From: Escherichia coli
GTDB taxonomy: Bacteria > Pseudomonadota > Gammaproteobacteria > Enterobacterales > Enterobacteriaceae
Strand: one strand, 5' to 3'
NCBI RefSeq assembly: GCF_003018235.1
Contig: NZ_CP027437.1
Length of the DNA: 64,000 nucleotides
The translations under genes and the position numbers were made by a program. How positions within the stretch are numbered: position 1 is the stretch's first letter; each line of letters starts with the position of its first letter. Under the pieces are notes generated by a model. That model saw nothing but the letters and a program-made list of their open reading frames with translations. It did no database searches and had not been told where the DNA came from. Below are positions 29,697 through 31,115 of the stretch, one piece after another.

Positions 29697-31115
29697 ATGT
29701 TAGTTAGTAAAAGCAACGAAATTAACACTAGCACATTTATAAATAGTGGAAGTTGTAATGAAAGAAAATCTTCTAAATCCATGGAGTTACTAGCTTATAG
29801 TATTATAAAATTAATTTGTAAGGAAGCTGCCACAGGGACGTATAACGGTGCTCTTGAAATTTTACAAAAAATGATGTCTGAATGTAAATATCATGAAAGC
29901 AATGCTTTTGTCATTATGGGAGCCGGAGAACAATTAAAACGTATTAAATATGATGTTAATGAAAATAAATTAAAGGTATACAACGTACACTTTGATAATA
30001 ATCAAGAGTTAGTTGCTGATGGTGAGCCTGAAGTAGTATTTTAAAAAAAAACGGTGTGGGAAGACCTTCTCGTTAAACTAAAGCTGGAGAACAAAGAAAA
30101 TGCGGTTTCTGAAGTTCATAAATCAGCGAATAAAGGTGAGATTGAGCAATTAGTTGAATGCTCTAAGAGAAATGAAAAGACGCTTCTTGATAATATAAGT
30201 AAAAATACTGCCATCTATAATATTTACAATAACCAACGAGCAACAAACATTACTACATCTTTATCTGAACCACCTGCACAAGGTAAAAGTAATGATGTAG
30301 ATAATTTAAAACAAACGCAGTTTATCAACGCTAGTCAATTTGATATTAATGAGCTTCAGCAGAGTTCTGCTTTTTTAGCGTCAAAATATCACACCATAGA
30401 TATTCAAGAAAAAACAGATGCGTTTGTGAAGAAGTTCAAGGGGATATTATTTGATAAAAATGGAAGGTCTTCAGAGCTTCTGTTTAATTTTTATGAGTGT
30501 TGCTATAAGTTTTTACCAAGAGCGCAGCCTCAAGATAAAATTGAAAGCTATAATTCAGCACTGCAAGCTTTTTCCATCTTTCGTTCATCTACTTTGAATA
30601 ATAATGATGTAGGGTTTAATTTCAAATTATTCCCAGAAGTCAAGCTGTCTGGAGAACATCTTGAAACGGTATTCAAATACAAAAATGGCGATGATGTCCG
30701 GGAGATAGCCAAAATTAACATTACTCTCCAAAAAGAAGAGGGTGGTTTATATAATTTACGTGGATTGGATTTTAAGGGATGCTTCTTTTCTGGACAGAAC
30801 TTCAGTAACTATGATATTCAATATGTGAACTGGGGAACGTCATTGTTTGATCTTGATACTCCGTGTATTTTTAATGCGCCTGCTTACAACAAGAGTAATG
30901 AAAAATCATTAGAACGCGTCAGCGAAAACGGTTTAAGTGGAGTCTTGTCTGATCGTAATAATAAAATAAAACTAATCACGGGCGTGGCACCATTCGATGA
31001 TATTTTATTTATGGATGATGACTTTGATGATAGTTCTTCTGAGGATGATCCCGTTGAGAATAGTCCTGTTGTGACTAGTCCCCTTGTATCAAGTTCTAAA
31101 AGCAGTTTTCAATGA
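29697..31115 (+). pseudogene. AT-rich ypjC-like ORF pair (115 aa + 353 aa) in the same frame separated by a single TAA; likely nonsense-disrupted gene
   Basis: ORFs 29697..30044 and 30054..31115 share a frame; no clear RBS for the second; very low GC; acidic Ser/Asp-rich C-terminus. Confidence 0.5.

Follow-up and report, generated by a model that had tools for sequence, protein, structure and literature searches.

The closest described counterpart of the locus reported here is ypjC/ypjB of Escherichia coli K-12 (together ypjCB; NCBIfam NF050179), which is the very same gene at the corresponding chromosomal site, likewise killed by one in-frame stop. The K-12 allele differs in that its own internal stop lies at codon 161, not 116, and in belonging to a 457-codon allele class that lacks the A8 tract described below and is separated from the allele class studied here by an overall dS of ∼0.19. 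In EAEC 042 (EC042_RS15265) and alleles of the YZLc1-3 type, an identical T4A9 tract puts a TAA at codon 116 and a downstream open reading frame (ORF2) starts from the same GTG, but these alleles are of a 484-codon type, with 145–166 substitutions and a 72-nt indel relative to our sequence. Hha, an H-NS partner protein, binds in the ypjC region, whose transcription it alters (PMC2408971), and deletion of K-12 ypjC changed pathogen colonization of biofilms (PMC3646849). Because of this biofilm phenotype, truncated fragments may not be fully inert.

The mutation itself also has described relatives. In substitutions attributed to transient misalignment, for which there is an E. coli precedent at run borders (PMC13250602, Box 1), the base bordering a run changes into the nucleotide of that run without altering the tract length, as is the case here; the strongest hot spots in that work are at C/G runs, and a T>A change beside an A8 run can be accommodated by the model. 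In the contingency loci of Neisseria, Haemophilus, and Campylobacter, gain or loss of one base in a coding homopolymer switches the gene off, recurrently across strains. The ypjCB tract appears to share these traits but is not family-wide, shows a low disrupted fraction, and in our sequence carries a substitution that is irreversible by slippage.

We analyzed a 64,000-nt stretch of an E. coli contig (NZ_CP027437.1), referred to as the window. We estimate with a probability of about 90% that the window holds a recent, lineage-specific nonsense pseudogene of ypjCB at a mutational hot spot. The lesion is ordinary in kind, and equivalent alleles are already recognized as pseudogenes by RefSeq; the points we add are evidence of recurrence, an inconsistency of annotation, and an artifact in Pfam boundaries.

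Identity and layout of the interrupted gene

Judging by its NF050179 match and synteny, we identify the locus as ypjCB, a catalogued, AT-rich gene of unassigned function that is restricted to E. coli and Shigella; a first-pass annotation made from the letters of the window had already called it ypjC-like. The whole frame runs on the plus strand from 29697 to 31115 and comprises 472 sense codons, broken at codon 116, and a terminal TGA (31113–31115). A TAA at 30042–30044 is the sole interruption in this 473-codon frame. Upstream of it, the ORF list and translation give ORF1 (29697–30044, plus strand), made up of the N-terminal 115 codons and the premature TAA, with a GAGGA Shine-Dalgarno-like motif ahead of its ATG at 29697. 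Downstream lies ORF2 (30054–31115, plus strand), in the same frame, with codons 120–472 (353 codons from a GTG) that cover the DUF5508 part and an acidic tail. The stop sits in a tract of T4 (30039–30042) followed by A9 (30043–30051).

These coordinates and translations agree with the first-pass description of two same-frame ORFs parted by one in-frame TAA. Some details needed adjustment: seven A's, and not eight, follow the stop, since two of the A9 belong to the TAA, and the intact form would be 472 aa long, close to the 470 aa that had been given. The acidic stretch said to end the product is present (MDDDFDDSSSEDD) but lies ∼25 residues before the C-terminus, which reads ...SSSKSSFQ. The very low GC that had been ascribed to xenogeneic DNA is borne out, at 0.30–0.36 over ypjCB vs. 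0.50–0.57 in the core DNA on either side.

ORF1 matches NF050179 at profile positions 1–115 (234.4 bits) and ORF2 matches it collinearly at positions 120–465 (685.7 bits); the family's curated cut-off is 650 bits. The intact allele of VCSW5, the nearest complete genome, scores 937.8 bits over positions 1–465, encodes a 472-aa protein (WP_000961348.1), and is 99.6% identical to the window's ypjCB over 1601 nt. On an intact allele Pfam places DUF5507 at residues 1–160 and DUF5508 at residues 218–472. The corresponding models (PF17612, 160 positions, and PF17621, 263 positions) coincide with the K-12 fragments YpjC (160 aa; YPJC_ECOLI) and YpjB, because the K-12 allele stops at codon 161; they are artifacts of this pseudogene split and not structural domains. 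RefSeq labels the gene either "ypjCB: YpjCB family protein" or "DUF5507 domain-containing protein." By megablast, the locus was found in 3079 out of 5426 complete E. coli genomes and was chromosomal every time.

The gene order in VCSW5, K-12, DG343-1, and O157 is alpha-amylase-like gene, tRNA-Ile, ypjCB, recombinase remnant, small ORF, and ypjA/ehaD. The window keeps ypjCB in this position, between ileY (tRNA-Ile with a CAU anticodon; 28870–28945, plus strand; ARAGORN, Rfam, and RefSeq annotation in relatives) and the pinH recombinase remnant and ypjA. ileY forms the left border of an AT-rich islet of ∼7.8 kb (28946–36755; ypjCB, recombinase remnant, and ypjA), flanked by the 3′ ends of ileY on one side and ssrA on the other, in keeping with the tRNA hotspot noted nearby in the first pass. 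The ssrA gene (tmRNA; 36756–37118, minus strand; Rfam) comes directly after ypjA. No CP4-57-like prophage is present at ssrA in the window strain.

A substitution at the border of an A run

Alignments show that intact alleles read GTA GTA TTT TTA AAA AAA ACG where the window reads GTA GTA TTT TAA AAA AAA ACG. A single T>A at 30043 accounts for the difference, changing Leu116 from TTA to TAA and the tract from the ancestral T5A8 to T4A9 (30039–30051), a polarity based on allele alignments and on tract counts in complete genomes. The codon is TTA (Leu) in nearly all aligned E. coli orthologues, which are single intact ORFs. The window therefore has an in-frame stop where orthologues have a sense codon, in an ORF that is otherwise collinear with theirs, as is expected of a nonsense pseudogene. 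Outside the tract, the window differs from VCSW5 by five substitutions across ypjCB. On both sides of the stop VCSW5 is the closest haplotype, with differences at 1/345 nt upstream and 1/352 nt downstream. Because only these five other substitutions separate it from the nearest intact allele, the nonsense mutation is young, and together with the TTA of the orthologues this supports the "fresh nonsense pseudogene" among the options listed in the first pass.

The window's exact 80-mer over the tract was absent from all 5426 complete genomes. In a large collection, the exact 115-aa ORF1 product was found on 21–23 contigs and the exact 353-aa ORF2 product on 19. T4A8 alleles and truncation at contig ends yield the 115-aa product too (seven loci with this product were fetched, of which five were T4A9, one was a T5 allele cut by a contig end, and one was T4A8), and product counts were therefore not used as T4A9 counts, which rest on exact 79–81-mer DNA matches. 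Five separate sequencing runs yielded T4A9 with 0–1 SNP in 1422 nt. Given T4A9 in five independent assemblies at this distance, the window allele is no artifact and marks a small clonal lineage.

Variation of the tract across strains

We counted tract states in complete E. coli genomes by exact match of 79–81-nt probes. T5A8 was present in 463 genomes on a GAC background and in six on a GAA background, the latter being the window's parental type. T4A9 was present in six genomes on the GAC background, EAEC 042 among them, while T5A7 was found in nine, T5A9 in one, and T4A8 in none. One ORF is kept in about 469 out of ∼485 scored complete genomes, and ∼3% of tract-bearing complete genomes are disrupted, though some of the +1/−1 variants among them could be homopolymer assembly errors. 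The tract is found in about 529 out of 3079 ypjCB-carrying genomes and is not a family-wide feature; in the K-12 and O157 allele classes its position is occupied by TGT TTA AGC AAG CAG (TTTAAGCAAGCAG). T4A8 was observed in an ENA metagenome contig (168–515), where deletion of a T gives the same 115-aa product as in the window.

The stop appears on more than one background. YZLc1-3, which has the TAA, is nearest to the intact DG343-1 allele (2/345 and 1/412 differences), and the two TAA alleles differ from each other at 9/345 positions upstream and 90/339 downstream of the stop. Since each TAA allele lies nearest a different intact haplotype, the T>A change would have arisen on at least two backgrounds, unless the TAA was moved by a conversion tract, which would have to be <82 nt long and fall between gene positions 336 and 418. 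The alleles of 042 and YZLc1-3 may share the TAA by descent, because they are identical around the tract. Length variants (T5A7, T5A9, and T4A8) are likewise spread over several haplotypes, some of them possibly through assembly errors: T5A7 occurs on three (GPEC403-625, C4, and MEW), and strain 1190 (T5A9) and GPEC403-625 (T5A7) are identical apart from the tract. The large collection contains 10 distinct tract-truncated N-terminal fragments, of 115 aa (191, 21, 6, and 2 contigs), 127 aa (37, 34, 16, and 16 contigs), and 126 aa (3 and 2 contigs). These distributions identify the T5A8 tract as a putative mutational hot spot, hit recurrently in other strains.

RefSeq handles equivalent alleles in two ways. 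EC042_RS15265 of 042 is entered as a DUF5507 domain-containing protein, a pseudogene with an "internal stop," and the C4 allele as "frameshifted," whereas YZLc1-3, 1190, GPEC403-625, and MEW have two protein-coding CDSs with WP accessions. The proper annotation of the locus would be a single ypjCB pseudogene carrying an internal stop, in place of two genes. With its run-border substitution and slippage hot spot, the tract offers a clear-cut natural case that could be used as a lineage-typing marker or for testing transient-misalignment mutagenesis. Apart from cleaner annotation, the finding is of little consequence; the gene itself is an orphan, species-restricted and highly polymorphic.

Alternative explanations and proposed origin

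Homopolymer borders are error-prone on some platforms and the exact window allele is in no complete RefSeq genome, which would fit a sequencing or assembly error at the homopolymer junction in a ypjCB that is really intact. The change, however, is a substitution that keeps the tract length and not an indel, T4A9 recurs identically in at least five independent short-read assemblies with 0–1 SNP, and the products of the allele are found on ∼20 contigs, making an error extremely unlikely. We give as little credence to programmed recoding, by which UAA readthrough, frameshifting on the U/A tract, or transcriptional slippage on A9 would still yield the full-length protein. The U4A9 sequence is slippery and RNA polymerase can slip on runs of A9, while UAA leaks the least of the stop codons in E. 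coli. Because the stop lies at the 5′ edge of the run, changes in A-run length cannot remove it: when the run was set in silico to six to 12 A's, the stop stayed at codon 116 every time, and a shift into the +1 or −1 frame meets a stop after 12 or 11 codons, respectively. Transcriptional slippage and +1/−1 ribosomal frameshifting are in this way excluded in silico as a rescue, the stop lacks conservation, orthologues having a sense codon at that position, and no full-length product is predicted. The gene might alternatively be split but functional, in effect two genes, with ORF1 (115 aa) and ORF2 (353 aa, by reinitiation at the GTG) both made. ORF2 is still intact and in frame, RefSeq at times enters equivalent alleles as a pair of CDSs, the large collection is rich in split forms (a 365-aa ORF2 is on 443 contigs), and deleting the truncated ypjC of K-12 gave a phenotype. 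Yet the sole nearby in-frame start after the stop is the GTG at 30054, 9 nt downstream (the next is at codon 244), and no Shine-Dalgarno sequence was found before it (upstream TAGTATTTTAAAAAAAAACG), so that reinitiation there is unsupported as a rescue. Moreover, the break at residue 116 falls inside the conserved N-terminal block (DUF5507, 1–160) and not at a domain border, frameshift alleles have an ORF2 that overlaps ORF1 and is out of frame with it, so the arrangement is not conserved, and RefSeq calls the identical lesion in 042 an internal stop. The first pass had kept two genes as an option, to be recognized by orthologues that consistently show two genes with their own RBS; orthologues are overwhelmingly one intact ORF, as in ∼469 out of ∼485 scored complete genomes, and we regard this option as distinctly improbable.

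Selection offers another account of the recurrence, in which T5A8 works as a phase-variation-like contingency switch, or positive selection favors loss of ypjCB, and the hits are adaptive instead of arising from mutation pressure alone. At least six inferred independent disruptions fall within the 13-nt tract, identical haplotypes carry T5A9 (1190) and T5A7 (GPEC403), and the adjoining adhesin gene ypjA of this strain is disrupted as well, at a G7 tract. Among the members of the 484-aa cluster that were read, there were 447 tract-split ORF2 contigs against 32 other non-partial truncations, although clonal sampling inflates such counts of contigs. The tract, however, is missing from the K-12 and O157 allele classes and is confined to ∼529 out of 3079 carriers; the disrupted fraction in complete genomes is the ∼3% given above; and the window's T4A9 nonsense allele cannot revert by slippage, as no A-run length removes the TAA and switches the gene back on. 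An A8 run is also short for classical phase variation. On this evidence we consider a switch or selected loss unlikely. Equally doubtful is the broader idea that ypjCB T5A8 and ypjA G7 are paired off-switches, with selection repeatedly silencing an H-NS/Hha-controlled, E. coli-specific surface/host-interaction module; if true, the parallel T>A nonsense changes and +1/−1 slips would be a record of adaptive loss and not of neutral decay.

We thus favor a recent nonsense pseudogene at a mutational hot spot, for which the following course of events is proposed. One T>A transversion at 30043 turned Leu116 into TAA, leaving at most a 115-residue fragment to be made, and the 472-residue YpjCB would be lost in the window's strain. 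Because the mutated T borders the A8 run, became an A, and left the tract length unchanged, we infer transient misalignment as the mutational mechanism: The nascent strand would slip at the A8 border and then realign, fixing the run nucleotide. Two compensating slips (T5A8>T5A9>T4A9 or T5A8>T4A8>T4A9) could give the same result, and both intermediates exist, but T5A9 and T4A8 are rarer than T4A9 in complete genomes (one and zero vs. six). Plain +1/−1 slippage frameshifts also gather in the same tract in other strains. Such hits would persist because ypjCB is weakly constrained, AT-rich, Hha-bound, and already dead in K-12 by another stop, and loss of the gene is probably neutral or nearly so.

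Divergence and possible function of YpjCB

YpjCB alleles are unusually divergent, with 70%–98% protein identity and lengths of 449–492 aa. The N-terminal ∼139 codons are conserved and the C-terminal part moderately so; between them, codons ∼140–232 make up a hypervariable linker, in which allele classes diverge at ∼27% of nucleotides and differ by a 72-nt indel. At the nucleotide level, extreme within-species polymorphism at gene positions ∼418–700 (window ∼30114–30396) adjoins a 5′ part that is 97%–98% identical, and the 3′ ends are mosaic, for example, in 042. The dN/dS ratio is 0.6–0.8 overall, ∼1 for residues 1–139, and 0.33–0.63 for residues 233–440, with a dS of 0.17–0.22 between allele classes. 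By these ratios, constraint is weak and lies mostly in the C-terminal part.

All 431 matches from a word-indexed search of 5.8 billion proteins were members of the YpjCB family in E. coli or Shigella, and phmmer against 1.84 billion representatives returned no credible homologue outside the family. A profile search gave no PDB sequence match at E ≤ 10, PADLOC gave no hits on YpjCB, and PHROGs held one unannotated family, which is the same protein. The lone marginal hit (E = 3e-4), a 799-aa PA14-like repeat protein (P0220), was judged too weak. The resemblance, which may be due to chance, is between YpjCB residues 311–374 (GCFFSGQNFSNYDIQYVNWG) and a repeated GCYYSDQNFTN...INFDWG motif of P0220; the motif common to both is GCxxSxQNF(S/T)N...(I/V)N(F/W)(D)WG-like. 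AF2 models are of low confidence (pLDDT 39 for the full length and 50 for the C-terminal domain). With these models, Foldseek found nothing credible in the PDB (best E 0.06, TM below 0.2) and, in AFDB50, the family itself only, besides hits to a retroelement RNase H-like fold that were rejected as not credible (TM ∼0.15). The idea of a T3SS effector of the PipB2/EspX kind was dropped for want of an outside-family homologue, a PDB sequence match, or a credible fold.

The LxGxDFxG-like repeats described in the first pass reduce to a single LRGLDFKG, although it does lie within a ∼35-residue stretch of five-residue periodicity. Residues ∼352–386 can be written as five-residue units (NLRG-LDFKG-CFFSG-QNFSN-YDIQY-VNWGT-SLFDL). 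Such consecutive units, together with short AF2 strands spaced five residues apart, are reminiscent of pentapeptide-repeat proteins (PF00805). YpjCB departs from these proteins in its non-significant HMM match (E = 0.29, 11.2 bits, residues 353–371), in having only approximately seven units, in its low model confidence, and in the lack of a fold match in PDB or AFDB. The Ser/Asn-rich N-terminus shows no signal peptide on visual inspection, and the acidic C-terminus is disordered in AF2 models. A promoter and terminator scan performed no better than on shuffled sequence. Our guess, offered with low confidence, is that YpjCB would act in interactions and not as an enzyme, combining a short pentapeptide-like beta-helix with a disordered acidic tail; with similarly low confidence, we would place it among silenced accessory interaction proteins.

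Neighboring features

The autotransporter adhesin gene ypjA/ehaD (32028–36475) is frameshifted by G7>G6 near 32464 compared with VCSW5 and is split into ORFs at 31899–32513 and 32831–36475. A 161-aa truncated ypjA product occurs on four contigs of the large collection, and the lesion is therefore probably real. The change at the G-tract is a second homopolymer-associated disruption within the islet.

Upstream of ileY, in the ygaQ region of K-12, an alpha-amylase-like gene (26058–28310, minus strand) is an intact 750-aa ORF; it is also intact in VCSW5 and DG343-1 and has internal stops in K-12 and the O157 strain Gim1-1. The tRNA gene itself is polymorphic among strains at positions 28, 42/43, and 67. 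In the window and DG343-1, A28 stands opposite C42, an anticodon-stem mismatch, next to G27–C43; K-12 has G27–U43 and G28–C42, and O157 has G28–U42. Farther along the window, Rfam places a pheA leader at 54874–54999 (minus strand) and a C4 antisense RNA, typical of P1/P7-like phage immunity regions, at 57788–57875 (plus strand).
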